The notes: generated from the letters alone by a model not told the origin. Counted from the first letter of the stretch, positions 1 to 62,365 are shown. The stretch: 64,000 nucleotides of DNA from a virus (IMGVR_UViG_3300031555_001748:1-64000), one strand, 5' to 3'. Made by a program: numbers and translations.

Positions 1-1149
1 AAGAAGTAATTATTGACTTTTTCAATGAAAGAGTTGCAGTAATTTTTGAATAAGACATAAGAATAAAGCTTATATTTTAATGGAGGTAACGATATGAGAA
101 CTGAAAAAGAAATCCATGAAAAGTTGGAAGAACTGAAAGCATTGAGAGATACCGACAATTATCGTTGTGATTACGATTATGAAAATGCGGTAGAACTAAA
201 AATCGACATGCTCCAATGGGTACTCAATACCCTATAAAAATCACATTTTAAGTGGAGGAATTATGAATAGAAAAGAAATATTACACGAACTGATGAAAAG
301 ATACTCTTTTGAAAAGGCACATTCTATTAGACAGATTGCAACGGAAGATAGAGAGTTTGAAAACGATGATGTATATATCGTGATGACTAGAACTCTTGAC
401 GGAGATATTTTTAATTGTAAGTGGAAGAATTAACGGAGGAAATTATGGAATATTGGGTTGCATTTAAGAATGGAGAATATGTATGCGGAACTGATGAATT
501 TGGTTATCCGCTACATACAAAAGACAAGAAAAAAGCTTATAGATTTTATGATTTTAATTTGGCAATGAGCAGTTATTTCAATCTTGGTTATGCAATTTTG
601 AAGGAATATGTTTAATCACATAAAACTACCATTTTAGACCATGCGGAGGATTTGCAAATGAAAAAGTATTATGCAGTATGCAACAGCTATTATGACGACG
701 GAAAAGTAATTGCAAACTTGGTTGATGTGATTGAAACGGAGGAAAAGCCAGAGGACACATACAGGGAAACAAGAAGATGTGATGTATATGTGAATTGGTT
801 TGAATCTTATGATGAAGCAATAAAATTTATTAAGGAGTGTAAGGCAGCATAACAAAACATTTACAGGGAGTGACGGAAGATGCTTTTGGTATATAAGAAC
901 CCAAAAACCAAAGAAATCGGAGTTGCTTTTGTTAGCGACAATGATGCGGAAGTTTTAGAAGCTACTGGATATTGTCATTGTAACAAAGAAGATTATATAG
1001 ACGAGAAATCAAACGGAAAATATGTAGAAGTTTGGAAGCCTTGTGAATAAATTTTAATGATTGAACATTGGATGGAAAATTTAATAGACAGAAACAAATA
1101 CTTTCCATCCAGTTTTGAATCATTAAACCAAAACCGAAAGGAATGAAAG

Positions 1150-1638
1150 ATGATGAACAAAATCTTGCAAAAAATATTGCATACTGGGATATGTTTATCA
1201 GTCGGATTTTCTATAGGTTTGAATTTAACAGACGATGTGTCAATCAAAGAAACAAGCGTACACGATGGAAAATATCTTAATAGTGTTTCACAAGTGGAAT
1301 TTTATGACCACATGATACAAGATGTAAACGCAATAGAAATCTATGATACAAGTGAATTGACACCGCAAATCATGGCAAATAGAAATGGAAAAATCATTGT
1401 GGAAAAAATCATTGGCGAAGTTACAAATTATAAATTGGATGGAAAAATCCTTAATTGTAGTGAAGCTGATGGTGGTTACACAAATAAAGATGGTGGAAAT
1501 TATATCAGCTATGAGCGTGTAGAAGGGGCTAAAGAAGGAGATAAAATCGTAACATATTATATCTACAATCCATTCACAAATGTACAAGACGATGTATGGA
1601 CACGCTTAGACTTTATTATTGATGATAATGCAATCTAG
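1150..1638 (+). CDS. Hypothetical protein with N-terminal signal/membrane segment
   Basis: Hydrophobic N-terminus (ILHTGICLSVGFSIGLNL) followed by a soluble domain. Confidence 0.6.
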   Translation: MMNKILQKILHTGICLSVGFSIGLNLTDDVSIKETSVHDGKYLNSVSQVEFYDHMIQDVNAIEIYDTSELTPQIMANRNGKIIVEKIIGEVTNYKLDGKILNCSEADGGYTNKDGGNYISYERVEGAKEGDKIVTYYIYNPFTNVQDDVWTRLDFIIDDNAI

Positions 1639-2282
1639 TATTGCATGGAAAAATATATAAGGAGTGATAATCATGAAAAAACTTTGGTATAATATCTACA
1701 TGGAATGTGTCAAGTATAGCCCATCCATTACGGCAAAGGTTGGTGAAGTTAATCACATTGGAAAAATCAAAAGTGAAGGATTGGCTTATCAAACTTGCAA
1801 AGCTATTCAAGAATCAGTCGGAGAATATTTCAAAGTATATTATAAATAAGGAGTAATGTGTAGTGGGGAAAATTCTAACAGAAAAGCAGTGTCATAATCG
1901 ATTGGAAAAATATTATAAAAAGTACTATGGAGAACTTGATACGGATGAATGGTCTGTTAATCCTGCTGTTAATGTATGGAGATTCGTCCGTGATGGAAAA
2001 ATTATTACTCTTAAATGTCATATGCTTACTGGTGAAGTAACGGAAAATAGCAAGCCTTATATCAAGGGAGTTGATTAAGATGTTAACAGTTGCCATTAGT
2101 CAAGAACCATTAGATTATGACGAACATGGTCATGATGGAGAATATTTTGTTACTGTAAATTGTGACGGAAAAAGATATAAAAAGTATTATACTTATCTTC
2201 CAGAATTTGAAGATGTAAAATCAGATTTTGAAATTTTTAAGGAAGATTTTGAGTTGATAGAGAATTAAATAATATTATAATG

Positions 2283-2310
2283 GGTTGAACGGAAAACTTT
2301 CCGTTCAACC
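2283..2310. repeat. Palindromic hairpin GGTTGAACGGAAA-AC-TTTCCGTTCAACC (copy 1)
   Basis: Perfect 13-bp inverted repeat. A related copy is at 2754-2781 and a half copy at 12030-12044. Confidence 0.85.
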
Positions 2311-2349
2311 TATAACAAAATAAATTTTTAGAAAATTAAAAAAACATAC

Positions 2350-2380
2350 TTGACAAATAGCAAATTATATGGTATAATAT
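2350..2380 (+). promoter_or_regulatory. sigma-A-type promoter
   Basis: TTGACA at 2350, an A-rich UP region, and TG-TATATAAT in the -10 region. Confidence 0.7.
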
Positions 2381-2435
2381 CATTGTAAGGTAAGAGGTAA
2401 CAATATATCGAATAAAATAACAGGAGGTAGTTAAA

Positions 2436-2732
2436 ATGAATGTAAACGGCTACGAAACAAAAACAACTTTCTGGCAGGATTTTTCTATCGCTGATATGTT
2501 TGGTACTGATGCAGTAAAAGACACTTACAATCGTGCTTTCAATGGATGGAAGGACAATCATATTTATCTTACCGAATTAGTCATGGTGCTTAATTGGAAG
2601 GTTTGGCAACACTATGAAAATAATGAACCACTTGCAAGAGTATATCAAGAACTTTGGCAGAAGGCAGATTATTACGCTTGCAATAATCTTGTAGGCGAAG
2701 AAATGGAATATTTCTTTAGAGTAACAGATTAA
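2436..2732 (+). CDS. Small hypothetical phage protein (98 aa) with its own promoter
   Basis: GGAGG RBS and an aromatic-rich helical sequence (TTFWQDFSIAD...LTELVMVLNWK). Confidence 0.75.
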   Translation: MNVNGYETKTTFWQDFSIADMFGTDAVKDTYNRAFNGWKDNHIYLTELVMVLNWKVWQHYENNEPLARVYQELWQKADYYACNNLVGEEMEYFFRVTD

Positions 2733-2753
2733 GACATAAAAGTATAAAGAATA

Positions 2754-2781
2754 GGTTAAACGGAAAATCTTCCGTTTAACC
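2754..2781. repeat. Palindromic hairpin GGTTAAACGGAA-AATC-TTCCGTTTAACC (copy 2)
   Basis: Perfect 12-bp inverted repeat related to 2283-2310, with a compensatory G-C to A-T change. Confidence 0.85.
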
Positions 2782-9074: not shown

Positions 9075-9872
9075 GTGATAACGATGGCAGCATTACCTGT
9101 TCGCAAACTAGAAACTAATAATGTTATAAAACTTTCTATCGTGAATGGAAAATTATCCAAAAAATCAGAAGTTGAATATAACAAAAATGATAGTATTGAT
9201 AAGCGACAAACTAATAAGGTTGCTGGTGTATCCTCCGAGGTATATCCATTTACCACACATGAAGAAATTAAAGCGATAATTGATGTGTTTAATAAGCACA
9301 TTTGCGAGGCAACAAACGATAATCAAAGACAGATTGCCTGTCGTAATAAAATGATGTTCTTAATCGGCATTAATATCTCTCTTCGTGCATCGGATTTGAT
9401 TACTCTTAAATGGAACTTTTTCTTCGATAATAACGGAGAGTTTAAAGACTTCTATGTTTTGCAACCAAAAAAACAAAGAAAGCAAAAGAAATTTGTTAAA
9501 TTATTTTTTAATCAGGCAGTAAAGAAAGCGGTTACTGACTATATAGAAGAGTATCCCATTCAAGACATGAACGAATATTTGTTCAAATCCAGAAAGGGTG
9601 ATGGTGCAATTAATGAAAAGTCATTATGGAGAATTGTTGTTAATGTTGCCGCTGAAGCTGGGATTAAAAAAAATGTAGGGTCACATTCACTTCGTAAGAC
9701 TTTTGGTTTTTGGGCATGGCATAATGCGGCAGACAAGAATAAAGCTTTGGTCACTTTGCAGATGTTATTCAATCATTCGGACACACAAACAACGCTTCGT
9801 TACATCGGTTTGCTAAGTTCTGAAATTGAAGATATGTTTAATAGCGTTGATTTGGGATTGGAATATATTTGA
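9075..9872 (+). CDS. Tyrosine recombinase (catalytic-domain type, catalytic set intact)
   Basis: R in ISLRASDL, HSLRKTF (HxxR), NHS and TLRYIG (Tyr nucleophile). There is no long N-terminal arm-binding domain. Confidence 0.93.
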   Translation: MITMAALPVRKLETNNVIKLSIVNGKLSKKSEVEYNKNDSIDKRQTNKVAGVSSEVYPFTTHEEIKAIIDVFNKHICEATNDNQRQIACRNKMMFLIGINISLRASDLITLKWNFFFDNNGEFKDFYVLQPKKQRKQKKFVKLFFNQAVKKAVTDYIEEYPIQDMNEYLFKSRKGDGAINEKSLWRIVVNVAAEAGIKKNVGSHSLRKTFGFWAWHNAADKNKALVTLQMLFNHSDTQTTLRYIGLLSSEIEDMFNSVDLGLEYI

Positions 9873-9956: not shown

Positions 9957-11045
9957 GTGTTTAATGTGGCAATCGACAAGATTTTAAAAATCGAAGGTTC
10001 GAGCATCACATGGACTTGTAAGCAGATTGTAAAAATGATTGACAAGGAAACGATTAGTTTCAAGAATGTTGTGCAGCGTTCATTTGTGTGGGAGAAGCAC
10101 AGAATGAGTGAACTTATTTGGTCAATCATTATGGGCTATCCCATTCCCCCTATCTATGCAGAACGTGGAGAATCTGTTAATGATAAGATAAAGATTTACG
10201 ATGTCATGGATGGTCAACAGCGTAATACTTCTATTTATAAGTATATAAAAGATGAATTTGCTTTGACACAGCTAAAACCAATTCCTTATTTGGATGAAGA
10301 TGGTAATGAATGTACAATTGATATTTCTGGTAAGAAGTTTTCGGAGTTGGAAGAAGAATTACAGGACATCATTAAGGACGCAACTATTACGGTTAAATAT
10401 TATGACAACCTTGACCAGACTCAAAAGGCAGAAATGTTCCGTCGTTTAAATAATGGTAAGCCGCTGTCTACGAAGTCCAGAACGCTTGCCTCTGCCAAAA
10501 ATATTGGAAGCCTACTTAATATTGGCTCTCATAAACTGTTTGAAGAGATGCTTACTGAGAAGGCGAGAGCCAACAAAAATCAAGCTGTTCTTGTTGTTAA
10601 AGCATGGACGATGTTAAATCGTGAAGTGGAAGATATTTCTTTTGCAAGTAAAGACTTTAATCCTATGATTGAAGAGATTGAAATTTCCAACGAAGAGAAA
10701 CAAGAGCTTGTAGATGTGTTTGACTTTATTGTAGGCGTTCACGAAGAGCTTATTGATAACAAGGAAAAAGATATGGCTAAGAAGCTGTATACTGAAACCC
10801 ATTTGATATCTCTTGTTCCTTATATCAAGCAGTCTATGGACAAAGGGATTAACGAAGCAATGTTTGGAGAATTTATTACGAACTTCTTTAAGACGGAAAA
10901 TAATACAGAAGTTTATAATAAGTATATGGATGCTTGTTCTAATGGTATTGCAAGAAATGCAAGTGTTGTTGCTAGACACGAAGCACTTGGAGAATCTTAT
11001 AAAGAATTTTTTAAGACGGAAGAAAATTCTGAAAAAGTATCTTGA
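9957..11045 (+). CDS. DUF262 / ParB-like (GmrS-type) domain protein
   Basis: QRSFVW, SIIMGYPIPPIY, DVMDGQQR and FRRLNNGKPLS are hallmark DUF262 motifs. Confidence 0.88.
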   Translation: MFNVAIDKILKIEGSSITWTCKQIVKMIDKETISFKNVVQRSFVWEKHRMSELIWSIIMGYPIPPIYAERGESVNDKIKIYDVMDGQQRNTSIYKYIKDEFALTQLKPIPYLDEDGNECTIDISGKKFSELEEELQDIIKDATITVKYYDNLDQTQKAEMFRRLNNGKPLSTKSRTLASAKNIGSLLNIGSHKLFEEMLTEKARANKNQAVLVVKAWTMLNREVEDISFASKDFNPMIEEIEISNEEKQELVDVFDFIVGVHEELIDNKEKDMAKKLYTETHLISLVPYIKQSMDKGINEAMFGEFITNFFKTENNTEVYNKYMDACSNGIARNASVVARHEALGESYKEFFKTEENSEKVS

Positions 11046-11070
11046 CAACTATATTGATATAGTGTATAAT
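11042..11070 (+). promoter_or_regulatory. Consensus sigma-A promoter
   Basis: TTGACA-N17-TATAAT. Confidence 0.88.
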
Positions 11071-12787: not shown

Positions 12788-12816
12788 TTGACAAATGGAA
12801 ATTATTGTGATATAAT
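12788..12816 (+). promoter_or_regulatory. Consensus sigma-A promoter (duplicate of 4460)
   Basis: TTGACA-N17-TATAAT. Confidence 0.9.
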
Positions 12817-13771: not shown

Positions 13772-16671
13772 GAGGTAATGTTATATGGAAAATGCTACAA
13801 TCGGAACAATTTATGCACTAAAGAATGGCGACAAATCGTTTGATGAAGTTGTTGCAGAATACTGGTCTAAGTATACTGGCACTTCAATTGAAGCTTATGA
13901 CGAAAGAACTTTGATGCGTATTTTACAAAATGTATTTCTGGATTATATCAGTACAGCAGATAATCCTAGATATGAAGTGTGGAGTTTGTTTGACAATATG
14001 TGGTTTGACTGTGACAGACTTTGTGAATCGAAAGACAGTTTTGATAAGAGAATTAGAAATGCTATCTATACAACTCTTATTCTCACAGATGTAAGAGATG
14101 GGAATGGATTTGTAAACGGGTTCAGAGAGATTTAAGAGGTAATAATGTATGGTAGAAAGATATTACAATGAGAATGATGAACTTGGTGTGCTGATTAGCT
14201 ATGATTATGGTGCTGGTTGGAGTACATGGAACGATAAAGAATTGGCATATGACAAGAGAATCGTAGAGAAGTGGCTTGAGGGAGTGTCTTCTTCTGAAAT
14301 GTGCAACTTTGTTGAAAGTCTAGGATATAAGCGTCCTTATATGGGTGGTTATAAAAATTTACATTTAGAGTTTGTTCCTCGTGGCACATTGTTCATAATT
14401 GATGAATATGACGGATATGAGTCTATTGAAACAATTGAAGATATGGATATGATTGTAGCATAATGGAGGCAATATTATATGAGAAGTTTTGAAGTATCGC
14501 AGCTTATTTCTGATTATGAAAGAGTACAGGAGAGCAGAAAGTGGATGAAAGAAATTCCTGCACTTCACTTTGAAAAAGAATGGGATGTCAGAATTATTCC
14601 TCCGTTTGGCGGAGCGGTAATTCGATTCTGGATTTGGCATAATGGTAAGAAGGTTTCTGTTTACTTCGACGCATATTCCGAATTGGGATATATGTATGAT
14701 GAAGATGATAATCCGATTCCTTACTTTGAATGTTACGATGGCGAAGATTGTCGCAGATACTACATGGATGAATCCGAGCAGATGATGGAAGATATTAAGA
14801 ACTTCCTCAATAGTTAAGGTTATAAAAGTAAAGTTTTAAGTGGTGGAATATATGAGTAAAAAGAAAGCAGTTATTTGTACGATTATTTTTGCAATTATGG
14901 TTGTTGGCATTGGCATTGCATTTATGTTTGTAAAACCGTATGAAAGCGAAATGAGTTTGTTCCACGCTTTTTGTCCTTTCATTGTAGGACAATGGCTTAG
15001 TGAACGAATTGGCAAGTTTTATGATTGGCTAAGGAAGAACGATTAAAAGCAGAGTTTTAAGAGGTGGTACAAATGGTATATTTTGTAGAGTCGCTTCCGA
15101 CAAGTTGTTTCTTTTGTGATTGCTGTCATACAAGAGAGTATGATAGTAGATACAAGATTGACGGAGAAAAGTTTTGTGGAATTGAAAACATGGAAGTGGG
15201 CGACTACTATGACCACAACAAGCATGACAGCTCTGGAAGACCGAAGTGGTGTCCTCTGAGAGAGATTATAGATGAAGCGCACTATCCGTCTTATAATAAA
15301 GGTTGGAATGATTGTTTGAATAAAATGATTAGTTTGTTAAGAACAGAGTTTTAAAAGGGTGAAAGATATGAAACCAGAAAATCATATAGCACATGAATCT
15401 GATGGATGTTATTGGACTGAAGTTGAAACAGCATTGGCAAACAATAGATATATTGGTGTAAAGATATCCAAAAGAGACATCGGACATTTGTTACAAGGAG
15501 AACATATCACATTATTGTTTTTGAACGATGATTATGAAGATAAAGGTATGATAGATATTAAACTATCAGATGACGAAACTGTGTTTGAAGTATCAGAAGA
15601 ACTTAATCAGATGATGATAAATACATAAAAGAAGATTTTTAAGGAGAATTTATATGGCAAAAATTCATAAGGTAGAATTGTATTTGCTAGATGTCAATGA
15701 AGATTTTGATAGTTTGGATGATGCTCTAGTATACATGACTAATAGAAAATATGCCCCAGATGTACATGTGATTAACTCTGAAAGCAAGGAATTTGAATGG
15801 GATGACGATGTAATTATCAATATGGTTAATTGCTCTACTGAGCAGTATAATAATTTCTTTGAAGAAATTTAAGTTTTGAATTTAAGGAGTATGATTATGA
15901 CAGTTGAACAGATTGCAATTAGACAAGAAGTTAGACAGATGCTTAATGAAGCTGGCATTAATAAAAATACTTTGAAGGACATGGTTAAAGATGTTCTAAA
16001 TGAAGAGCTTGAAAGAGCGGTTAAGCAAGCACTTAACGAAACAAATATAAGTGATAAAGTTAGCCGTTGCTTTCACGATACTTTTAAGACCGTAATGAAA
16101 GAGGAAGTTCGTAGCAGAATTGTAAGTCCGTTTAATAGGATGCAGATTTCTGTAGATATTACAGACGAACACGGAACAAGTTCGTTGGGCTAATAAAATT
16201 CTTGATTTAAGTGGTGAATGTATATGATGGGCAGATTTAACTACGGTACAATTGTTGACCGCAAGGCAGGAGAAAATATTAAGAATAATGACATCTATAT
16301 CTTAGACCCAGAAACAAGAGAGATTCGTAAGGCAAGGAATTGCGATGAATGGTTGACTTGCCAATTGGTTTATGTAAACAATATGCGTCTTGACAATGTT
16401 ATTGATTTCGATATTAACAAAGGAGAGATGTGTCGTTGTTGGATTGGATATTTGTTGATTTAAGAGGTAAATGCATATGAGATGGTTGATTAATTATTTT
16501 CGCTCTTGCTTCTGTAAACATGATTGGGAATTATTAAACAAAGCCAACATGTTTGGTGAAAGTACAACAATGCCAATTGGAATGAAGTGGACTTATAGAT
16601 GTAAAAAATGTGGATGGCATAAGATTATAAAGAATTATTGAATAATAAAATTCTCATTTTAAAAGAGGTAA

Positions 16672-18799: not shown

Positions 18800-21700
18800 A
18801 TGGAAGAATTGGAAGCTTTGATTGATGAATTGGGCAATATGTACGACGAGCTTGTTGCCAGAACATTGTCTCATAATGTTATTATCGAAGATTATCACAA
18901 GTTTAGCTATAGCGAATTGTGCAATAAGATGATTGATACAATTAACGAAATTAGAAAGGGATAAACTATGAAGAAAGTTAGCGGCTATATCGATGTAAGG
19001 GCATTGGGATGCTATGACTTTGAGTTCTATGTAGATGATAATACTACGGAAGAAGAAATCAAAAAGAAGGTAGATGAAGTGTGTGACTACAGCATTAGCT
19101 ATGATGTGGAAGCTGGTTATGAAGAGTACACGGAAGTTCGCTATCGCAAGAAGCAGAACGATTGGTGGAACTATGAATAAAGGAATGACTAGGTGATTGA
19201 TATGAAGCCTATATTTAAATGTGATTACTGTTCTAAGATGGGAACAGAAGAAGAAATTAGAGAGCACGAACCTATCTGTACAGACAATTATGACAGAAAA
19301 AGTTGTTATACATGTGTACATAAAAAAACTAGATGTAAAGACAATATATCTGAAAAGAAAGTAACATGGATATACGAATGTAAAGCTGGCAATGAAATTC
19401 CAGAAGGAAAAATTTTTGAATTTTGTCCGCAGTATGAAAGAAGAGAAAAGCCTTATACTTTGGGCGAAGCCATATTCGATAATTTGTTCGATTTTGGATT
19501 ATAAAAGAAGGATTTTAAGTTATGGAAATTATCTATGATTACAAAGCAGGAGAATACCATATTATCCTAAAGGAAGAAACTGAATTTTGTTTTAATACTG
19601 ACAACATTTTTCAAACAAGAGAATGGTTTATTGAACAGATGACCAGAATGTTCGATGATACAGTTGGAGTTAAATTTAAGAAAGAAATTTAATCGAGGTA
19701 TATATGGAAGAGCGCAAGCGTGTATGCTGCAATTGTGGAAACAATATTCGTATTAGAGATGACAAAGACAATTTTGTTCGTTGTGAATGTGCTATTGACG
19801 GACATTATATTGGCTATATCGAATGCTTTGAACACTGGTGTAGACGATGGAAGAAAGATAGAAAATGGGATTAAAATCAAGCTTTTATGAGGTAAAGTTA
19901 TATGAAAGACATTTTAGATATTTTGGCAGAACCGATATATAAAACTGTAGCAAATGACTTGTCTGTTAATGGCGAGAATGATTTTGTTAGGGATGCGTAT
20001 GCGTATGATATGACCACATTGGAAATCCTTAATTGGTATCGAAACCTTTATTATAAAGAAGGGATTGAAACAGAAAGAGGACTAATGGCTATGACTATCA
20101 ATGATTTATTTACAAAATATAAAATTGAACCTCGATGAATTGTTTACAATTTATTCATAATGTGTTCATAATTGGATTTTATAATAATAGTAGAAAATAA
20201 AACTAAGTCTTGCGAGGTAATATCATGATTGGAGAATCTTTCTGTGTATCAAAAGAACTGTTCCGCTGCGTTTATATTACGAAAGATAATGTGGAAGAAT
20301 TCGTAGACAAATATGGCATAAGAGATGAATACGAAATATTTTATTCTGAATATTACGCCCATGTTGAATACAAGAAAGCAAAAATGAGATGGAATATTAG
20401 ATTAAATGCTTTTATGGTTGATTATGGTTGGGATGGCGGATGGACAAGTTACACAAAAAAAGAATTTAATGAGTATTTTGAAATAAAAAATTAAAATCGA
20501 GATTTTATGAGGTAAAAATATGGAAGTATTAATTATTATATTGGCACAGGTTTTTGCAATTTGCGTACACGCATATTTGCTTTGGTGCGAAAAGAAATAT
20601 TGTGGTCATTGTGACTGGTGGTGGGATACTGGCGCAATTATAAATCTTGTAATTAGTTTTGTCCCAATCTTGGGTTTGTTCGTTTCGATTGCAGGATGTG
20701 CTGATTATATGAGAAATGTTACGGAGGAATTAACCAAAGGTAGCAAATAAAAAGAATATTTTAAGAGGTAAAGTTATAAGAAAGCGAGTAATGTAAAATG
20801 AAAGAAATATCTTTTAATGATTTTAGAGAAATGCTTTTATATAAAAGCGTTGTCGAATGGAACAAAAAAGAAAACTATATAGTGCTTGACAATGGAATGA
20901 GAATCACTATTAAAATGACAGAAAGTGATTGTTGTGCTTATGCAAGTGGCGAATTTGAAGATGTAAAGTTGGAAGCTGTGATTACAGATGTTACCGAACC
21001 AAAGTATTCACCTTGGGAGGATTACGATACATATGGATGTTCCGCTGTTGTAAAAATGTTACACAATCAAAACTTAATTTGTAAGGTAAATGCAGATGCA
21101 GATGCAGGTAATGGTGGATATTATTTCTCTATTGCAAGTTTTATTGTAACATATAATGATTCTGAATTTTCTGTATACCTTGTTGGCAGCGATGATGAAG
21201 CAAACTAACACTTAAAAAGTTTATTTTAAAGCAAACCTCCACAAAACCATATCTATTGTGGAGGTTCAGTAAAACAAATTAATATGGAGGAAACAGTTAT
21301 GATGCTTGAAGCTGTATGGCTTAAGAACGGCAAGGAAGTTTACAAGGTTAGTCCAGTAGAAAATGTTGTGTGCTATAAAGATATGGAAATTTCAGATATT
21401 GAAGTTGAAAGCACATACAGATGGCACGAATATAGCGATGTTGTTGGCGGAGCTGATGACTTTGTAATTAGAATTAAGAGGGATTGACAAATGACTGTAT
21501 TTGATAGTGCTAAATCTAAGAATATTGATGAGCTTGTTGAATGGTTAGACAAGAATGGAGCATATGATTATACGCCTTGGGACAAATGGTTCGACAGAAC
21601 TTATTGTAAGAAATGTGAAGCGGTAAAAGATTATGTGGATTACCTGCATGGAGAACATGAATTCTGTTGGTGTGAACTACATAACAAATGCAGATTCTTT

Positions 21701-32901: not shown

Positions 32902-34053
32902 TTGATTTATCTCGATTCTGCTGCAACAGCTAAATATAGAAATATTGATGATATTATTGTAAACACGATTATAACCGCAATGAGAGATAGTTGGCAAAAT
33001 CCATCCAGTCTTTATGCAGTCAATGTAAAAGATAAAATCAATAAATGCAGAGCAAATATTGCAGAGTTTATTGGGGCAGAACCTAATGAAATTTATTTTA
33101 CAAGCGGAGCTTCTGAAAGTAATAACTGGGCTATTAGAGGTTGGGTTGACGAAACGTGGCTAGATATATATAAAACACCAAATGTTATTACAACAAAAAT
33201 AGAACATAAATCCATTCTAGAACTTCTTGATAATAGTGATTTAGATGCCATTATAAGTTATTGCAATGTAGACGAGTTTGGATTTGTTGATATTGAATCA
33301 TTGAAACAAATGTTAATAATGCGAGAAGGCAAGCCTGTTTTGGTAAGTGTTCATATAGCCAACAATGAAATTGGCACGATTCAGCCTATCAAGCAGATTT
33401 CTGAGTTGGTTCATAGTTATGGCGGTATTATACATGTAGATGCTACACAAGCGCTAGGTCATATTCATGTTGATGTAGAAGAGCTTGGAATTGATATGAT
33501 GAGTGCGAGTGGTCATAAGATTTCTCCTGTGCTCAGAGGTATTGGCTTCTTATATAAGAAAAATAACATAAATATTCAACCGCTTATCTATGGAGCGCAA
33601 GAAAATGGGCTGCGTGGAGGCACCGAGAACACTTACGGAATCATTGGGTTAAACAAAGCAATTGAAATGTGTAATTTCAGCCAAGATGAAATTAATGAAA
33701 TGTACAGCAAGAGAGATTATTTTATCTGCTCACTTGAAAATAAATTTGGCTGCAAATTAAACGGAGATAGATGGATGCGATTGCCAAATAATATCAATGT
33801 AACATTTCCTCAAAACATAACTGGTGAAAGCTTGCTGTATATGCTTGACATGAGCAATATAAAAATTTCAACAGGCTCAGCTTGTAACAGTCATATAATT
33901 TCTCCTAGTCATGTATTAAAGGCTGTGGGCATGAGTGACGAAGATGCAATGAGAAGCGTTCGGTTTACATTGCCAGAAGATATTACATATGAAGAAATTA
34001 ATTATGTTGTCAAGGAAATTGATAACGCAATTAAACTTATTGAAATAAATTAA
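32902..34053 (+). CDS. iscS: Cysteine desulfurase (IscS/NifS-type, PLP-dependent)
   Basis: YLDSAAT, FTSGASESNN, EHKS, NNEIGT, HVDATQ, SGHK (PLP Lys), RGGTEN and STGSAC (catalytic Cys). Confidence 0.93.
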   Translation: MIYLDSAATAKYRNIDDIIVNTIITAMRDSWQNPSSLYAVNVKDKINKCRANIAEFIGAEPNEIYFTSGASESNNWAIRGWVDETWLDIYKTPNVITTKIEHKSILELLDNSDLDAIISYCNVDEFGFVDIESLKQMLIMREGKPVLVSVHIANNEIGTIQPIKQISELVHSYGGIIHVDATQALGHIHVDVEELGIDMMSASGHKISPVLRGIGFLYKKNNINIQPLIYGAQENGLRGGTENTYGIIGLNKAIEMCNFSQDEINEMYSKRDYFICSLENKFGCKLNGDRWMRLPNNINVTFPQNITGESLLYMLDMSNIKISTGSACNSHIISPSHVLKAVGMSDEDAMRSVRFTLPEDITYEEINYVVKEIDNAIKLIEIN

Positions 34054-40405: not shown

Positions 40406-40410
40406 ATGAT

Positions 40411-41196
40411 ATGTCTAATGGTGAAATTAGTAAACTTGGAGAAGAAAATTTTAACAACAAAGGTTGTTTAATGAGGATTATTGAATTTAATAGTCGTTAT
40501 GATATTGTTGTAGAATTTCAAGATAAATATAAGGGGCAAGTACACACAAATTATCAAGCATTCTCATGTGGACAAGTAAAAAATCCTTATTTGACCTCTG
40601 TTGTCGGAGTTGGAATTACTGGTAATAAATATCTAACCCATATCAATCGAAAGCCAGTTAAGGAATATGTGTCTTGGGTTCATATGTTGAAAAGATGCTA
40701 TGATGAAAGATACAGAAATAAAAATCGTACATATAATGAATGTTGCGTCTGCGAAAAATGGTTGTTATTTGAAAATTTCTATGAATGGTTGCATTCCCAA
40801 GAGAACTTTGATAAGTGGTTGAATGGAGTACAATGGAATGTAGACAAAGATATCATTATAAAAGGAAATAAAACTTATTCGCCAGAGACTTGTTGTTTAG
40901 TTTCAAACGAAGTAAATAGCTTATTTACTAAAGGCAATGCAAGAAGAGGTAATTTGCCTATTGGTGTTTCAAAGGTAAAAAATAGAAATGGATATTGTGC
41001 ATCATGCCATAATCCATTTACAAACAAGCAAGAATATTTAGGTTATTATAGGACAATAAATGAAGCGTTTACTGTCTATAAGAGATGCAAAGAAGATATT
41101 ATTAAACAAGTTGCTCAAACCGAATATTCTAATGGTAACATAACCAAAGAATGTTATGATGCTATGATGAAATATGAAGTTGAAATTACAGACTAA
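40411..41196 (+). CDS. Free-standing HNH-type homing endonuclease with AP2-like C-terminus
   Basis: WVHMLKRCY, CEKWLLFENFYEW, VDKDIIIKGNKTYSPETCCLV and LPIGVS..YLGYY. Confidence 0.85.
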   Translation: MSNGEISKLGEENFNNKGCLMRIIEFNSRYDIVVEFQDKYKGQVHTNYQAFSCGQVKNPYLTSVVGVGITGNKYLTHINRKPVKEYVSWVHMLKRCYDERYRNKNRTYNECCVCEKWLLFENFYEWLHSQENFDKWLNGVQWNVDKDIIIKGNKTYSPETCCLVSNEVNSLFTKGNARRGNLPIGVSKVKNRNGYCASCHNPFTNKQEYLGYYRTINEAFTVYKRCKEDIIKQVAQTEYSNGNITKECYDAMMKYEVEITD

Positions 41197-42532: not shown

Positions 42533-42606
42533 TTTTAAAATGGTGATTTTAAGCGAAAGGTTGATGCGAACTGGATTATAAGATTGATAAAAAGACAAAT
42601 ATATAT

Positions 42607-43182
42607 ATGACTCTACTTACCCTGTATTGTGTGGCATTGGTCGTATCCAATATTATTTCAAACAGAACATTTGAAATCGGACAATTTATGCTTCCGTCAG
42701 CAGTAATAGTGTTTCCAATCATCTATATTATCAACGATGTGTTAACTGAATGTTATGGATTCAAGATGGCTTCCAAGGCTATTTGGACTGCATTTGGTTT
42801 GAACTTAATGGCAGTAGTATTTTTTAATATTGCAGTAAATCTTCCCACAACAACAGATTATTCAAGTTATAATATTGTTCTTGGAAACACGATAAAGCCA
42901 TTAATTGCTTCTGTTCTTGCGTATTTGGTTGGCAGTTTTGTTAATGCAAAGGTAATGGATACACTTAGAAATCATAAGAATTTGATGCTGAGATGTGTGC
43001 TTAGTACATTGTTTGGAGAAACAATTGACGCTACAATCTTCATTTCGATTATGTTTATTGGGATTATGGACTTTAAGGTTGTTTGTACAATGATAATTAC
43101 ACAAGCCGTTTTTAAAACGCTATATGAGATAATCGTATACCCAGTAACAAAGGCAGTAATTAATGGAATCAAATCAATTTGA
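42607..43182 (+). CDS. VUT/YhhQ-family queuosine-precursor (preQ0/preQ1) transporter
   Basis: SNIISN, VIVFPIIYIINDVLTECYG, ASVLAYLVGSFVN, STLFGETIDATIF and KTLYEIIVYPVT, with several TM helices. Confidence 0.9.
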   Translation: MTLLTLYCVALVVSNIISNRTFEIGQFMLPSAVIVFPIIYIINDVLTECYGFKMASKAIWTAFGLNLMAVVFFNIAVNLPTTTDYSSYNIVLGNTIKPLIASVLAYLVGSFVNAKVMDTLRNHKNLMLRCVLSTLFGETIDATIFISIMFIGIMDFKVVCTMIITQAVFKTLYEIIVYPVTKAVINGIKSI

Positions 43183-43949
43183 GTATGAATACTAAAATAT
43201 TTTTGTCATCAATTGTCAATGTGAAAACTACTATTGTTCCGTATTTTGAACCATATTATATATTAGAGAGTTTTATATATTTAAAGGCTAAAACAAAAAA
43301 GACGAAGGATTATATAAAATGGTGCTTGTCGGCAAAAGAGTTTTTGCTTGATAGCGGAGCATTTGTTTTCATTAATAAATCAAAAAAGGCTTCTAAATTT
43401 TCTGATGAAGTATTAAAAAAATATATAGATGATTATATTGAATTTATAAATCAATATGATATAAAGCAGTTTTTTGAAATGGATATTGATTGTTTAGTAG
43501 GGTATGACAAAGTAAAAGAAATCAGACAATACATAGAAAACAAGACTGGCAAGAAGGTTATACCAGTTTGGCACAGAAGCAGAGGCATGGAAGACTTTCA
43601 TGATATGTGTAAAGAGTATGAATATGTGGCGGTTGGTGGTATTGCTGCTGGCGAAATAAAACGGTCAGAATATGATTTTTTATGCGAACTTTGCGATATA
43701 GCACATTCTTATGAATGTAAAATTCATGGACTTGGTTATTCACCATTATCAATTCTAAATGAAAGAAAATGTCCGTTCGACACAATAGACAGTACTACTT
43801 GGATAGGACATAAATTTGGCGACTATTTTAATTTTGATAACGGAAAGTTAGAAAAGATAAAAGACAAAGATAGATATTGGCGGTCACTAGACCAAGATTC
43901 ATTTTCTTCTTGGGTCGAGTTTTCTAAGTTACCAGATGTATGTCAATAG
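43179..43949 (+). CDS. TGT/DpdA-like base-exchange (transglycosylase) TIM-barrel protein
   Basis: LLDSGAF (compare TGT DSGG), EMDID, VIPVWH, AVGG, KIHGLG and DTIDSTTW; overlaps the VUT gene. Confidence 0.72.
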   Translation: MSMNTKIFLSSIVNVKTTIVPYFEPYYILESFIYLKAKTKKTKDYIKWCLSAKEFLLDSGAFVFINKSKKASKFSDEVLKKYIDDYIEFINQYDIKQFFEMDIDCLVGYDKVKEIRQYIENKTGKKVIPVWHRSRGMEDFHDMCKEYEYVAVGGIAAGEIKRSEYDFLCELCDIAHSYECKIHGLGYSPLSILNERKCPFDTIDSTTWIGHKFGDYFNFDNGKLEKIKDKDRYWRSLDQDSFSSWVEFSKLPDVCQ

Positions 43950-43994
43950 CAAATTAATAATTAAAATTATAAAATTACGATTTTAAGGCGAATT

Positions 43995-46900
43995 ATGAAA
44001 GATAGAGAATGGTATAAGGAACAAATTGATAACTTGCAAGATTGGTTGTTAGACGAAAAAATAATTAAGTCTCAAAACGACATTGAAAAAGAAGCATATC
44101 AAACCGTTTTACATAAGGTTATAGATATGTTCGTAGGCGAAGATTTGGATGATGATTATTTAGATAATCTATTAGAAGTCTTTAGCGAGTTATAAAATTG
44201 CAGTTTTAAGAGGTGATTAAATGGCTCGATTAAGCTATGAAGAGCTTGAAAAGATTAAAAAGAAACATGGTGTTACACGACTATGGTCATGGTCAAAAGT
44301 AAATACTTACATGACCTCTAAGTTTGAATACCTTCTAAAATATATTCTTAAATCAAAAGAAGATAGATGCGACAGTTGTTACACGACACTTGGTACTATC
44401 TGTCACGATACACTAGAGAAGTTCTACGAAGGTAAGATTAAGTACGAAGGCATGATTGACGATTATAACGATGGTTTTACTACTGCAATTACAATCGCAG
44501 ACCTAAAGTTTAATCGCTCTGATGCAGAAAAGAATAAGAGTATTGGTGAGAAGTATAACGAAAACTTAGTTCATTTCTTTAAGAATCATACTGTATATAA
44601 GCATAAGTTATTGGTAGAAAAGCCCATCATCTTTGTTATTGATGGCAATGTATTTGTAGGATATATCGACGGTCTTTATAAAGATGACGAAGATTTTGTA
44701 TATCCATTAGACTTTAAGACTAGTAGCATTTATACTGGTAAAACTCTCGAAGAAAATTCTGGTCAGTTAATTGGTTATGCTATTGGCTTACATCAAATGG
44801 GCATTCCTCTTGAAAAGATTAAGCCGCATTTTAACTTCCTAAAGTATTGTACCATTAAATATGAGCAAAAGAATGGTGCAATTAAGTATAGAAATGTTGA
44901 GAGATGCAAGATTGGTGAAAATATGCAGAGCAATGCAAAGACTTGGTTGAAGCACTTTGGATATGATGTTGACAAGTACTTAAAAGAGCTGCTTGACACA
45001 AATAGCATTGACTGTCTGCCTGATAAAGTGAAGGCTAAGTATGAGATTACTGACTGTCATGTTCCAGTTGAATTAAATGAGAAGATTATAGAAAAGTGGA
45101 CTAGTCACATTTCAACTACGATTCAAGATATTGAGTTACGAGAGAAAGATTATGAAGAGACCAAATCTCTTCAGTGCTTCTGGGATGACGAGGAAGATGT
45201 AAAGGCTCAAAGTTATTACTTTGCCAATCTATGTGCTTATAGTGCTTCTAAGCATTTGCCTTATAAGGCTTACTTAGAGAAGTTCGAAGCTGCTCAAAAG
45301 AGCAAAGATATGTTTGGTGGGTTGCTTGGCAATACTTCTTCAAGTAGTAACGTTATAGATAATAAGAGCAATGAAATAGATTTGTCTTGGCTTGATAATA
45401 TTTGAGGTGATGTAAATGATTCGCATAGAGGGACATTGGGAAGCCGTTGCAAGCCTACGAGATATTTCTAAAATTATTAGAGAATATTATAACCGTGAAC
45501 TTGCAGATGAAATGGATAAGTTGATTGAAATACAAGAAAATGAAATTCGTGATTTACAGTTGGAATTATATAATGCGCCAATGTACGACAACGACGACGA
45601 CGATTGGTATGATGACTGAAACGAGGTAAACAATATGAGTTTTTTGGTAACAAATAAAGACAATGGCGAGATGTACGAAGTATATGATATTGTGTATAAC
45701 AAGGCTGGATATCCGCACTTTTTAATTTACAAAAATGGTGAATGGCTTCGTCTAAGCGCAAAGCACTTTACACCGTTTTGTCCTCTTGATTACGAGAGTG
45801 ACTTTTAAAAGTTTAATTTTATGAGGTAATAATATGAATCTTGAATGGAATGTGTTTCGTCATGATATAAATAAGAACAAAATAGTTACTTTTAATATCT
45901 TTGACCACTGGAAGTTCAGCGAAGATGTCCAAAAGTCCTTGAAGAAATTCAAGGACAAGGACGAATTCGCAGAGCATCTAAGACGAGATTTGATGTATTA
46001 TTTCTGGTCTAAGTTTGAGTACGAAGTAGTGATTACAACTTTTCCTCCTTACATTACTATGGACGAGTTAGATAGATTGAATCATGAAAGATGGTCACAT
46101 AAAGATAGATATGGTACAGACTATGTGCGAATTAATGTTAGTCCAGATACTGGAGTCAAGATTGATATTTATGAACAAGTTATGAACAATTGGAACATTT
46201 TCTTAGATTATGTATGGAATAGTAAAATTCGTAGACCAAGAAAGAAGAAGGTGGATGTAGATGCTGACGGCTTGGGATGCTAAACAGAAGACTCAGGAAT
46301 ACGCAAGAGACTTTCGTGAAGAATGTTATGAAATAGAGGGGCTTATTGAAAAAGCAATTCTATCTGGTCATTTCTATGTGGTTGAATCAGGATATATAAA
46401 TCCAGCAATGAAAAGACATTTAGAAAATTTAGGATACATTGTTAAAACTGGAACCCAATATAATGAACCTTATTATTCTATTAGTTGGAAATAACAATTA
46501 AAACTAACATTTTAAGAGGTAAAGTTATGAAGAAGTTTACAATAGAATTAGTTTGGCATAACTGTTTAGAATGTCCACCAGAAGAAGCGACAAACGATTA
46601 TCTTATTGCGACAGATGGCGTTGATGTGTTCGAAGCGTTTTGGTATAGACCAGATGGTTTTATGATTCATGCAAAGCATGGATGGCATGGACTTTATGAA
46701 GATTTAAATAAATGGTACTGGGCAGATATTAGACAGACTGTGCGAGGAGACTACAGATTCAGAGGCTTGATTGTCGATGATGTTGTTGCCGTTTGTCAAG
46801 AATATCTAGGACAATTAAAACAGGGATTTTAATATGAGGTAAAAATATGAATGATGTAGAATTTGATATTGATGAATTTGAAGTATTTGACGAATATGAT

Positions 46901-47930
46901 GACTCATATGAAAACGAAATTATGAAATTCATTTGGGGTGTAAAGTCTTGGGACGATTTGTGCGAATCAGACGCTTGCTTGTACACAATGAATGATATCG
47001 AATTAGACTATCTCAAAGATACAAAAAAATATCTCTTAAGCATAGAAACCATTTTTATTTTTGATAAAGAAGAACATAAATTAAGTTATCTTAAGTATTG
47101 TTTAGACGAGTTTGAAAAATTCATGGTGGAAAACGGGTATAATACAGAAGTAAAGCCGCACTGGTGGAATGTATTTGGTGACGGTATGAATACACATTTT
47201 GATAGTATTGAAGAATGTTATGCAACGTTCAAGTTGCTTGTAAATGGCTATTGCAACTTTAAGAGGTAAGTATATATGGATGAAAAGAAATATGTAACAT
47301 GGGAAATGTTTGAACAGTATCATAAGAAACTTATGGAATACATTGATATACACGATGACTTAATGCTAGATGGTTTCACTATTTGTCCTAAATGCGGTGA
47401 AATTATGACAAGTGACAAGTGTGAGAACTGTGCAAAAGAAGATTAAAACAAAGATTTTAAGGTGAGAATTATGACAAATGAACAGATGGCAGAAAGACGA
47501 GTTGCTAGAGAAATTTTGAGCATCATTGAAACAATTTGTTTTAGCGAAGAGTATAAAGCATATAGAATTAATTATGGAAGCAATGGTCAACGAGATTTAA
47601 TTATATCCACTATTAAAGCCAAATATAATGTTGGCTGATAAAATAAAGGTTTTAAGAGGTAAATTTATGAACGCAGAAGAAAGACTGTTATACGCTGGAT
47701 ATGAGGACGTTAAGTATTTAGTAAATTATAGTTATGACGATGCCTTGATTGGAGTTACAGAAGACGGCAGAGCTGTTTATAACTATGAGCTTATGATTGA
47801 ATGGCTTATGAATGAAGAGGGCTGGACTGACAATGAGGCTGTTGAATGGATTGAAACAAATACAATAAGAGCCTTGCCTTATATGGGCAATGACGCACCG
47901 ATTATTGTGTATCCATTGCCATATTATTAA
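43995..47930 (+). other. Second island of small accessory ORFs around the PD-(D/E)XK nuclease
   Basis: ORFs at 43995-44195, 45416-45619, 45834-46283, 46261-46494, about 46528-46832, 46847-47269, 47668-47930 and others; 7 junction palindromes. Confidence 0.7.
44221..45405 (+). CDS. PD-(D/E)XK exonuclease (RecB/Cas4-like)
   Basis: SWSKVNTY, LGTICHDTLE, VEK, FVGYIDGLY, LDFKTS and QLIGY; C-terminal YFANLCAY...C-type motif. Confidence 0.88.
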   Translation: MARLSYEELEKIKKKHGVTRLWSWSKVNTYMTSKFEYLLKYILKSKEDRCDSCYTTLGTICHDTLEKFYEGKIKYEGMIDDYNDGFTTAITIADLKFNRSDAEKNKSIGEKYNENLVHFFKNHTVYKHKLLVEKPIIFVIDGNVFVGYIDGLYKDDEDFVYPLDFKTSSIYTGKTLEENSGQLIGYAIGLHQMGIPLEKIKPHFNFLKYCTIKYEQKNGAIKYRNVERCKIGENMQSNAKTWLKHFGYDVDKYLKELLDTNSIDCLPDKVKAKYEITDCHVPVELNEKIIEKWTSHISTTIQDIELREKDYEETKSLQCFWDDEEDVKAQSYYFANLCAYSASKHLPYKAYLEKFEAAQKSKDMFGGLLGNTSSSSNVIDNKSNEIDLSWLDNI

Positions 47931-58576: not shown

Positions 58577-58624
58577 ACACAACATATAGTGGTCAAAACG
58601 AAATGAAACCACTATATGTTGTGG
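58577..58624. promoter_or_regulatory. Tandem NrdR-like boxes
   Basis: ACACAACATATAGTGG and CCACTATATGTTGTGG, starts 32 bp apart, both fit acaCwAtATaTwGtg. Confidence 0.65.
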
Positions 58625-58667
58625 TCAATAACCACTTAAAATTCTAATTTTATAATGAGGTGTTTAT

Positions 58668-61019: not shown

Positions 61020-61022
61020 AAT

Positions 61023-61097: not shown

Positions 61098-61102
61098 CAT
61101 AT

Positions 61103-61178: not shown

Positions 61179-61182
61179 ATAT

Positions 61183-61259: not shown

Positions 61260-61262
61260 TAT

Positions 61263-61353
61263 GGAGAGTTGTCCGAGCGGTTTAAGGAGCCAGTCTTGAA
61301 AACTGGTGATGGATGAAAGTCCACCGTGGGTTCGAATCCCACACTCTCCGCCA
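61263..61353 (+). tRNA. trnS: tRNA-Ser(TGA)
   Basis: Loop CTTGAAA, long variable arm, G73, CCA. Confidence 0.94.
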
Positions 61354-61436
61354 AATATCGTAGAATTCCATAAAATCCGTCCTGCCTCACAATCTGTACC
61401 TGTTGCCGCAGGTTGGCTAAAAAAGCAGATTGATAT

Positions 61437-61523
61437 GCCGATGTGATGGAATTGGTAGACGTAGTGGACTCAAAATCCACCGCTAGTGATAGCGTAGGGG
61501 TTCGACTCCCCTCATCGGCACCA
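61437..61523 (+). tRNA. trnL: tRNA-Leu(CAA)
   Basis: Loop CTCAAAA, variable arm, CCA. Confidence 0.94.
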
Positions 61524-61531
61524 AAATACAT

Positions 61532-61607
61532 GCGGTTGTAGCTCAATTGGTAGAGTCCTTGCCTTCCAAGCAAGTTGTTGCGAGTTCAAGTCTCGTCAGC
61601 CGCTCCA
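61532..61607 (+). tRNA. trnG: tRNA-Gly(TCC)
   Basis: Loop CTTCCAA, U73, CCA. Confidence 0.94.
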
Positions 61608-61650
61608 TGCTCACTCAAAGAGTGATAACAAAACAAAAGAAAGTGAGAAA

Positions 61651-62262
61651 ATGAATATGCATATTAATATTAACGATAAGTTTGTTGCGGTAAAGAAGAT
61701 GTGGTTTCTTGACGAAGGAACTGTAGTCAATATTACCAATGTGTCCGAAGATGGCATCATCTCATTTACCTTTGGTGAAAATAACACAAACAACGGCTAT
61801 ATGGATACCGCTACATTTGCAGAACATTTCAAGAAACTTGAGGATATGACTGCAAAAATTAAAGCGCCTACAATCACAGATGAATACATTGCAGAAATCA
61901 TGGAGAATTCTGAATTTGAAATTCATACTGTATTTGATAAGTGTACAGTTGTTTCTTGCCGTCTTCCCAATGGCTTCGTAATCACAGAATCTTCTTCTTG
62001 TGTAAGTCCTGAGAATTACGACGAAGATACGGGAGCAGAAATTTGCTTCGATAAGATTTCAGATAAGATTTGGGAACTGGAAGCATACAGACTTCAGCAG
62101 TGGCTGTGGGAAGAGGAAGTATGCGATTGCGGTTGTGAGAACTGCGACGGCAGAGAGTGCATTTGCGAAGAAGATGACGACGAGTTCGATGAATGTCTGG
62201 ATACTGATTTAGACTGCGATGATTGCGACGATTATGACTGCCCTCATAATCCTAATTACTAA
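61651..62262 (+). CDS. Gp49-family (N4 gp49/Sf6 gp66-like) protein with a Cys/Asp-rich tail
   Basis: TVVSCRLPNGFVITESSSCVSPENYDEDTG..ICFDKISDKIWELEAY. Confidence 0.8.
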   Translation: MNMHININDKFVAVKKMWFLDEGTVVNITNVSEDGIISFTFGENNTNNGYMDTATFAEHFKKLEDMTAKIKAPTITDEYIAEIMENSEFEIHTVFDKCTVVSCRLPNGFVITESSSCVSPENYDEDTGAEICFDKISDKIWELEAYRLQQWLWEEEVCDCGCENCDGRECICEEDDDEFDECLDTDLDCDDCDDYDCPHNPNY

Positions 62263-62288
62263 TATTATAACAAATGAATAAAAACAAG

Positions 62289-62336
62289 GCACAATATGTA
62301 GTAGTAGGCAACAATTAAAAACACTATATGTTGTGT
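62289..62336. promoter_or_regulatory. Tandem NrdR-like boxes (second pair)
   Basis: GCACAATATGTAGTAG and ACACTATATGTTGTGT, starts 32 bp apart. Confidence 0.6.
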
Positions 62337-62365
62337 CTTGTTGCGTATAAAATATAGATTTTAAG

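Follow-up and report, generated by a model that had tools for sequence, protein, structure and literature searches.

Organization of the locus

The viral DNA analysed here (IMGVR_UViG_3300031555_001748:1-64000, hereafter the window) comprises the first 64 kb of one viral contig of 75,375 bp, which is estimated to be about 53% complete. Its replication genes are of the SPbeta type, and its DnaE protein shares 56% identity with the DnaE of Clostridium phage c-st and 49% with the one encoded by the C. difficile phage phiCD211. The window is punctuated by a short palindromic element, TAAAA-N6-TTTTA, in which two 5-bp inverted arms enclose a six-base centre. These sites, together with two open reading frames (ORFs) encoding recombinase-fold proteins, are the subject of this work. 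The relevant features are the following.

235-29632, unstranded: array 1, 35 sites of 16 bp each among small accessory genes, starting at 235, 621, 3404, 4224, 4757, 4988, 5907, 11136, 11431, 11717, 12283, 14823, 15044, 15626, 16646, 17120, 17732, 17901, 18426, 19502, 19872, 20492, 20748, 21213, 23148, 23783, 25076, 26194, 26397, 26640, 26926, 27227, 28309, 28979 and 29617.
42536-47654, unstranded: array 2, 8 sites between the primase gene and the DnaE gene, starting at 42536, 43970, 44193, 45806, 46499, 46816, 47444 and 47639.
58637-58652, unstranded: lone site with centre TTCTAA, 3' of the ribonucleotide reductase/dUTPase block, with two NrdR-box-like palindromes upstream.
62348-62363, unstranded: lone site with centre TATAGA, with one NrdR-box-like palindrome upstream.
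16194-16209, unstranded: decayed site, TAAAATTCTTGATTTA, in which one arm base is mismatched; the centre, TTCTTG, belongs to an intact site at the matching place in a related contig (G001, see below).
9075-9872, + strand: tyrosine recombinase of 265 amino acids (PF00589, phrog_216), the candidate enzyme, inside the accessory array.
29907-30854, + strand: MrpR/YopR/SroF-like recombinase-fold protein (phrog_5830, E 2e-8; PDB 9RD5, SroF of phi3T, E 0.002).

Exact copies of the element numbered 45 in the window, compared with a mean of 0.95 and a maximum of 4 in dinucleotide-preserving shuffles, and 47 sites were found in the full contig. The spacing was strict: 45 copies had a six-base centre, three had N5, one had N4 and none had N7, and no spacing from k = 0 to 15 other than six exceeded four copies. 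When the 1024 possible 5-N6-5 palindromes were compared, the TAAAA arms alone were enriched (45 copies versus at most 5). The six-base centres differ from copy to copy, and none of them is self-complementary. A preliminary description of this DNA, made from the sequence alone, had listed at least 45 palindromes with a chance expectation of one or two, a fixed 6-bp spacer with rare N4/N5 variants at 3217, 6121 and 24029, spacers that vary and are not self-complementary, and a layout of 35 + 8 + 2 sites with none at 29.7-42.5 kb or 48-58.5 kb. All these points were reproduced by the counts. The TAAAA-N6-TTTTA sites of the window are confirmed as a real, strict 16-bp element. Besides the decayed site listed above, further one-mismatch copies, each followed by a ribosome-binding site, lie at 64, 3587 and 15338.

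A different sequence, CACTATATGTTGTG, occurs in three exact copies within 58577-58624 and 62321-62336 and resembles NrdR boxes. Two copies, at 58578 (minus strand) and 58610 (plus strand), are inverted relative to each other with 18 bp between them, and the third is at 62322. These sets lie 14-20 bp upstream of the two right-most TAAAA-N6-TTTTA palindromes, after the ribonucleotide reductase/dUTPase block.

Position of the sites at gene junctions

The gene-junction figures for the window rest on a crude gene map. On this map, the site's own TAA was the upstream stop codon at 19 sites, where at least 14 had been claimed. At about 20 further sites the stop codon lay 0-7 nt before the site, and at 4224 and 11717 it fell inside the site, in line with the earlier remark that these two reach into the last codons of the upstream gene. 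The start codon was located 10-17 nt past the site in 33 of 45 cases, and the right arm merges into the Shine-Dalgarno sequence (TTTTA-AGAGGT). Sites were carried by 32 of the 40 gene gaps of 25-60 nt, and overlapping or tightly coupled genes were free of them. The location between a gene end and the next ribosome-binding site, as first described, was therefore borne out. The DNA between sites consists of cassettes of one or two genes in a single orientation.

No conserved promoter hexamers were found beside the sites, and promoter-like matches were not enriched. Two perfect sigma-A-type promoters (TTGACA-17-TATAAT) were observed on the + strand at 11042-11070 and 12788-12816, the second with a TG extension. 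Apart from these two, such matches show no enrichment, and transcription of the accessory array therefore probably gives a small number of long RNAs. Site 21213 is not followed by a ribosome-binding site; instead, a G+C-rich inverted repeat is found at 21229-21270 (cctccacaa...ttgtggagg), a terminator-like hairpin that closes one transcription unit.

The six-base centres are conserved by position

The contig of the window (G000) was compared with the relatives G001, G004, G003 and G005. G002, G003 and G005 represent one phage, of which G005 is the complete 153-kb genome. These relatives are not close: homologous genes are 65-85% identical in DNA, and most of the DNA between sites cannot be aligned. 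No close relative of the window was found in the phage collection or among the fetched loci. The only matches of at least 88% identity were two stretches, each of about 100 bp, one of which stops exactly at site 3404.

Despite the mostly unalignable DNA between them, the centres common to the window and a relative were perfectly collinear, and comprised 32 of the 40 centres of G001, 18 of the 54 of G003 and most of those of G004. Most centres of array 1 recurred in the same order in G001, G004, G005, the metagenome contigs L142 and L149 and other contigs. In array 2, all eight centres were collinear in G001 and G004, and five of the eight in G005. The series that precedes the repressor-like gene (AACATA, AGCGTA, TACGAA, ACAAAC, ATAAAA, ATAGAG, ATGAAG, ATATAC, ATTATA, ACTTAA, ACATAG) was also present in the independent metagenome contigs L142, L149, L148, L150 and L154, and in parts in G006, G009 and G010. 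Altogether, 40 of the 47 centres of the contig recurred in at least one other contig compared, and the order of the centres was kept across at least eight phages; the centre TTCTAA of the site at 58637 was absent from the other contigs compared. As a chance scale, about 0.5 common members would be expected between random sets of 47 and 40 hexamers drawn with equal likelihood, and a few when the observed composition is applied.

The conservation is confined to the site. In the 32 site pairs of G000 and G001, 16 of 16 positions were identical, and the identity of the flanks dropped to about 30%, the random level, from -2 leftward and past about +10 rightward. In some pairs the identity runs over the ribosome-binding site to the start codon. 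Of 31 slots with the same two bounding centres in both contigs, 22 gave no tblastx match, and slot lengths differed; the slot from AACATA to AGCGTA, for example, measures 619 bp in the window versus 1453 bp in G001. Across all contigs compared, 572 pairs of sites with the same centre were available: neither flank was shared in 531 and both flanks in 22, and the upstream flank alone was shared in 10 and the downstream flank alone in 9. The tract of exact identity at shared sites had a median of 20 bp and was 25 bp or shorter in 87%. A linkage of the centre to its upstream or downstream gene, for which SPbeta had given a hint, was rejected on these figures (10 versus 9 pairs) and did not generalise.

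Because 531 of the 572 pairs share neither flank, the comparison indicates that the centre belongs to the position and not to the adjoining gene. The six-base centre thus appears to work like a positional address that outlasts the genes around it.

A separate observation was made in G006 (IMGVR_UViG_3300029305_001452), where the block AACATA, ACAAAC, ATAAAA, ATAGAG lies on the strand opposite to GTAAAG, GCAGAG, GAAGAT (32-36 kb versus 76-77 kb). Inversion of entire address blocks between phages, with their internal order kept, is therefore possible.

Boundaries of exchanged DNA in cultured phages

The BLAST-level core proteins common to the window phage, SPbeta, c-st and phiCD211 are replication proteins only, and the neighbours of dnaE in c-st are annotated as homologues of YorF, YorI, YorJ and YorL. 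The palindrome was found in the three cultured phages. It occurred 31 times in c-st and 26 times in phiCD211, versus 7 for the reversed-pattern control in each case, and 34 sites were counted in SPbeta, with one copy of the N5 and three of the N7 spacing. The palindrome was also enriched in many uncultured viral contigs. Two of the exact palindromes of SPbeta (NC_001884) lie within coding sequence, at 82017-82032 in the repressor gene yopR and at 103854-103869 in the helicase gene yorI.

As the window has no close relative, the SPbeta group was used to evaluate the sharpness of the boundaries. The region at 67.5-93.5 kb of SPbeta was compared by megablast with Goe13, phi3T, SPR and SPbetaL6, whose shared DNA is 92-100% identical. 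It was observed that 20 of 66 block ends lay within 12 bp of an exact site, compared with about one expected (the 11 sites cover about 1.7% of positions). Other recurrent block ends fell at one-mismatch copies of the site, namely 83688 (TGTAAG), 71535 (TCGTAC) and 91361 (TCGTGA), whose centres are intact in other phages. A block of 3213 bp that is 100% identical between SPbeta and phi3T extends exactly from site 83688 to site 86886, and a block of 835 bp that is 100% identical between SPbeta and Goe13 extends from site 86074 to site 86886; both have non-homologous flanks. At 113-133 kb, SPbeta and phi3Ts have the same centres in the same order, and fully identical tracts stop at sites. In these sequence comparisons, the exchanged blocks of the SPbeta group were bounded by sites with an equal centre in both phages.

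The preliminary description had offered, as one of its options, sites that delimit exchanged gene cassettes at the DNA level. The random identity at the site edges, the unrelated genes in most equivalent slots and this check of homology-block boundaries in cultured phages all agree with DNA-level boundaries of gene exchange between related phages.

The centres of one genome are mutually distinct

Within each of G000, G001, G004 and G005, no duplicate, reverse-complement or palindromic centres were found. Near neighbours, defined as other centres at a Hamming distance of one or less, were counted and compared with 2000 column shuffles. In G000, six centres had a near neighbour versus 19.4 expected, and none of the 2000 shuffles gave a value as low. 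The corresponding figures were 4 versus 14.6 for G001 (3 of 2000 as low), 4 versus 16.3 for G004 (2 of 2000) and 14 versus 26.2 for G005 (4 of 2000). Judged by these sequences, the centres look selected for mutual distinctness. The four genomes show what characterizes a heterospecific site set: the same arms with distinct, asymmetric spacers.

A candidate recombinase

The product of ORF 9075-9872 matched the tyrosine recombinase family PF00589 in Pfam (E 6e-19) and the integrase family phrog_216 in PHROG (E 7e-42). The residues R104, H204-x-x-R207, H234 and Y243 were invariant in five orthologues. A structural model had a mean pLDDT of 60, with residues 1-55 unmodelled, and its best fold matches were XerA and XerH; IntI4 was the weaker match both in sequence and in fold. 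From these sequence and model data, the protein looks like an active, Xer-like tyrosine recombinase, and we infer that it may act on the sites. Directly downstream, 9957-11045 encodes a DUF262/GmrSD_N protein of 362 amino acids in which no nuclease domain was found. The pair of recombinase and DUF262/GmrSD_N genes is kept in G001 and in G003/G005, with a DNA identity above that of most of the array.

At least one PF00589 protein was detected in every address-bearing phage examined. A single recombinase orthologue common to all site-bearing phages was looked for and not found, the PHROG scans placing the integrases in the generic families phrog_1 and phrog_216. Co-variation of the arms with the type of recombinase was also considered and rejected, as G007, G006 and G010 were still enriched for TAAAA-N6-TTTTA. 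In pairwise BLAST, ORF 9075 against YopP or YomM and ORF 29907 against YopR gave marginal results; these proteins were assigned to their families by profile searches. The gene for the tyrosine recombinase YopP is reported to belong to the core genes of SPbeta-like phages.

Inverted arms around a central region of 6-8 bp constitute the core-site geometry of tyrosine recombinases, and all 45 N6 sites have it. The dyad symmetry of the SPbeta sites continues outward, so that each arm measures about 11 bp (TTTnnATAAAA / TTTTATnnAAA). In the family of the window, the left outer arm shows weak preferences, with A at -6 and C at -4 in about 48% versus 13% in the background, and on the right the outer arm falls on the Shine-Dalgarno sequence. 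The tyrosine-recombinase geometry that had been claimed for the sites is upheld: the arms enclose a strict N6 as in difH, and ORF 9075-9872 looks like an active enzyme.

In-register exchange as the proposed explanation

Taken together, we consider it fairly probable that the TAAAA-N6-TTTTA sites are heterospecific crossover sites acting at the DNA level, with the centres as addresses and Xer-type chemistry as the most likely mechanism. We infer that a recombinase cuts at the sites, which enzyme this may be, and that matching centres would be a mechanistic need. In such a scheme, a dimer of a single Xer-type recombinase would bind both A-tract arms and cut at the borders of the 6-bp centre, and strand exchange would be completed only if both centres match. 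Tyrosine recombinases require matching overlap regions to finish strand exchange. The enzyme could be the product of ORF 9075-9872, another phage tyrosine recombinase or a host Xer enzyme. Two related phages in one cell would then swap everything to one side of a shared address or, alternatively, the block between two shared addresses. With every address distinct and the order kept, the exchange would take place in register and gene order would be preserved.

Sites with the same arms and distinct centres would recombine like with like only, and between collinear genomes such exchange would yield in-register recombinants, with no deletions, duplications or inversions. This model fits because the order of the centres is conserved, the centres are unique and asymmetric, and the blocks end at sites. 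For the broader proposal, namely that dozens of mutually incompatible sites form a natural set in the SPbeta-like phages of Firmicutes, a population-wide code by which an Xer-like recombinase reassorts accessory genes in register between relatives that co-infect a cell or reside in it, we would put the chances at about even. No published description of the element was found in full-text literature searches, which included SPbeta recombination and hybrids as well as YopP.

Several observations weigh against this explanation. The conserved arms are only 5 bp long as far as strong conservation goes, the outer arms being weakly conserved in the family of the window, and the model of ORF 9075 has no confident N-terminal core-binding domain. 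At the sensitivity used, the 265-amino-acid type of ORF 9075 was missing from G004 (which is incomplete), G006, c-st and phiCD211. No recombinase orthologue is common to all the site-bearing phages, although the same arms are found whether the host is Bacillus, Clostridium or uncultured. A different phage protein or the Xer machinery of the host might therefore be the enzyme. In SPbeta, the over-dispersion of the centres was not significant (6 versus 9.1 with a near neighbour), and the distinctness statistics of the other four genomes are not independent, since these share many centres. Homologous genes are occasionally found at distant positions of the scaffold, and certain sites are gained or lost while the sites on either side stay in place. 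Neither the moved genes nor the optional sites can be explained by like-with-like exchange alone, and other processes must make and remove slots. Finally, in Hyb2, a laboratory hybrid of phi3Ts and SPbeta, both crossovers lay inside long tracts identical in the parents. This hybrid is uninformative on the sites, and since the laboratory hybrids crossed over in long identical tracts, ordinary homologous recombination also operates.

The origin of phage mosaicism has long been debated between random illegitimate recombination filtered by selection and conserved linkers that guide exchange. If in-register exchange at the sites is true, they would be the clearest case so far of guided phage gene exchange, with linkers that are visible, strict and position-coded, and would give modular phage evolution a dedicated enzymatic basis. 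Should the centres be read by a recombinase, the phages would supply a single enzyme with dozens of naturally orthogonal sites, which would be of interest to genome engineers, and the fast turnover of accessory genes, probably of defence and counter-defence, in SPbeta-like phages would be explained as well. The idea is directly testable, since the element is present in SPbeta, phi3T and phiCD211, all of which can be grown and engineered.

Alternative explanations

The main rival is recombination mediated by linkers through short homology, which we regard as unlikely. The conserved junction of 16-24 bp would serve as a homology patch for an annealing protein with an exonuclease, or for host RecA, with no dedicated enzyme and with the arms serving another purpose. 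The linkers of Susskind and Botstein are such conserved junction patches for homologous exchange. In its favour, genes for an AAA_24 (Sak4-like) protein and a PD-(D/E)XK nuclease are present in the phage, the laboratory hybrids of SPbeta and phi3Ts arose by crossovers in long identical tracts, and the identity in some pairs reaches over the ribosome-binding site to the start codon. The PeSL elements show, furthermore, that repeated intergenic motifs can shuffle small phage genes (PMC2839356). However, this explanation does not account for invariant palindromic arms with a strict N6 across very different hosts, nor for centres that avoid near-identity, reverse complements and palindromes. The short tract of exact identity also speaks against it, as about 20 bp of homology is at or under the usual minimum for efficient homologous recombination.

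The mobility of single cassettes in the manner of integrons or dif modules, by which cassettes would excise as circles and reinsert at other sites, was judged quite improbable. It would suit the one- or two-gene cassettes in one orientation, the homologous genes that lie in different slots and the cassette-plus-site units that some phages have and others lack between the same neighbours. Movement of this kind is known for the dif modules of Acinetobacter plasmids (PMC6449649). However, free excision and insertion would shuffle or duplicate the centres, which are unique and kept in order. The site, a perfect palindrome of 16 bp, lacks the attC architecture, and its centre does not travel with a gene: it is linked to neither flank, hence there is no unit of a gene with its own site. 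The capture of free one-gene cassettes put forward in the preliminary description was not supported, the position-specific, unique and ordered centres fitting in-register crossing-over between collinear genomes better than the excision and insertion of circles. Its suggestion of a tolerant coupling sequence of the Tn916 type found no support either, as this would scramble the centres, yet they are conserved.

A still slimmer chance was given to an operator or stoperator function, in which a repressor, either the MrpR/SroF-like product of ORF 29907 or another dimeric protein, would bind all the sites and silence or time the accessory genes. The dyad symmetry with half-sites one helical turn apart, the confinement of the sites to accessory regions of early type and the recombinase-fold repressor homologue encoded beside the array are in favour of this, and SPbeta has a known system of repeated operators (PMC10516654). 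SPbeta YopR matches phrog_5830 (E 4e-117), the same family as ORF 29907, and no H-x-x-R motif was seen by eye at the recombinase position of ORF 29907 (A1 consensus). ORF 29907-30854 probably encodes the prophage repressor. However, chromatin affinity purification sequencing (ChAP-seq) of MrpR in SPbeta gave 10 peaks, all at SPBRE boxes (PMC10516654), and about 30 of the 34 palindromes of SPbeta had no peak. The SPBRE box derived from these 10 promoters, AAAAAATATGTATAT, is unrelated to the palindrome. A single SroF monomer recognizes 24 of the 26 bp of its long, asymmetric operator, the middle included (bioRxiv 10.1101/2025.11.27.690993), which cannot be reconciled with a 5-6-5 palindrome whose centre is free to vary. 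These data are evidence against ORF 29907 binding the sites, and the palindromes do not have the make-up of an SPBRE/SroF operator. An operator would also leave unexplained the variable centres that are conserved in position amid changing genes. The stoperator bound by a recombinase-fold repressor, as first proposed, was thus not sustained.

An RNA element, in which a UAAAA-N6-UUUUA hairpin or protein-binding motif in the polycistronic messenger RNA would act in processing, translational coupling or ribosome loading, as also suggested at first, was considered the least probable of all: the sites of the window family abut the Shine-Dalgarno sequence and often supply the stop codon, and the array is seemingly transcribed from few promoters, but the computed energy of the stem-loop is +0.7 to +1.8 kcal/mol, no compensatory arm variants were found among the 5-N6-5 palindromes (TAAAA alone being enriched), the sites of SPbeta lie at variable distances from ribosome-binding sites and in part between convergent or late genes, and a position-specific conservation of the loop would have no explanation.

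Other genes and motifs

In the replication region, 43179-43949 encodes a queuine tRNA-ribosyltransferase-like protein (phrog_887) and 32902-34053 a class-V aminotransferase or cysteine-desulfurase-like protein. Both genes might serve the modification of bases in DNA or tRNA. At 40378-41196, flanked by the genes for the helicase and the primase, lies a gene for an HNH endonuclease (phrog_953). It resembles the insertion of a homing endonuclease, and its DNA also matches another place in G001. In G007 (IMGVR_UViG_3300045988_091023) a second gapped palindrome, ATCAA-N8-TTGAT, was present in 7 copies versus about 0.4 expected.

Comparison with known systems

By analogy, the element would belong to Xer-type site-specific recombination. 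Among natural systems dif modules come closest to it, and in function the closest match is exchange between heterospecific lox/FRT sites. The difH consensus, TGAAAA-N6-TTTTCA, has a palindromic inner part and a 6-bp central region, and replacing its four A's abolishes recombination (PMC3325230). As the site of XerH in Helicobacter and Campylobacter, difH resembles the phage site in the A4 inner arm, the 6-bp centre and the T4 that follows; in this and the other single-recombinase systems (XerA, XerS) one enzyme serves both arms. In contrast, difH is one chromosomal site that serves dimer resolution and depends on FtsK, whereas the phages have dozens of sites per genome, with their own centres and at gene junctions. 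Compared with the XerH-type enzymes, ORF 9075 is shorter, lacks a confident core-binding domain and is a candidate only.

In pdif sites, the inner palindromic arms are conserved, and both the outer arms and the 6-bp centre vary (PMC6449649). Like the phage sites, the pdif/dif modules of Acinetobacter, recombined by XerC/XerD, comprise many sites per replicon (of 28 bp and Xer type) that flank accessory modules occurring in varying combinations. They differ in that two host recombinases are used, the sites alternate in orientation and modules move between unrelated positions, whereas the phage sites have symmetric arms and unique, over-dispersed centres in a fixed order on a phage replicon. The engineered heterospecific variants of lox and FRT, which serve recombinase-mediated cassette exchange, have identical arms and a spacer that sets their compatibility; only like sites recombine, and a cassette flanked by two unlike sites is replaced in register. 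They have arms of 13 bp and spacers of 8 bp and are laboratory constructs used in pairs, whereas each phage genome would hold 40-60 naturally occurring sites, all distinct from one another.

Integron arrays with attC and attI likewise consist of small promoterless genes of the same orientation with inverted repeats between them, and the stop codon is often inside the site. The attC sites are imperfect repeats of 57-141 bp, with R''-L''/L'-R' boxes and extrahelical bases, which IntI recombines at a single attI while they are folded as single strands. In integrons an IntI-type integrase with an adjacent attI and Pc promoter heads the array; ORF 9075 lies inside its array. Integron cassettes carry their own attC, whereas the centre of the 16-bp phage palindrome would belong to its position. 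The PeSL of T4-type phages are likewise a repeated intergenic motif at small accessory genes that marks their gain, loss and replacement (PMC2839356, PMC4122927). However, they are a composite of promoter and terminator, are thought to act in homologous recombination and have no addresses, whereas the phage sites contain neither an early promoter nor a stable stem-loop terminator. The SPBRE operators and the L5 stoperators are similar in being short intergenic sites repeated in temperate phages. The SPBRE/SroF boxes are, however, long, asymmetric and fully specified and are found at about 10 promoters, whereas the palindromes are 3-5 times more numerous, differ in sequence and do not coincide with ChAP-seq peaks.

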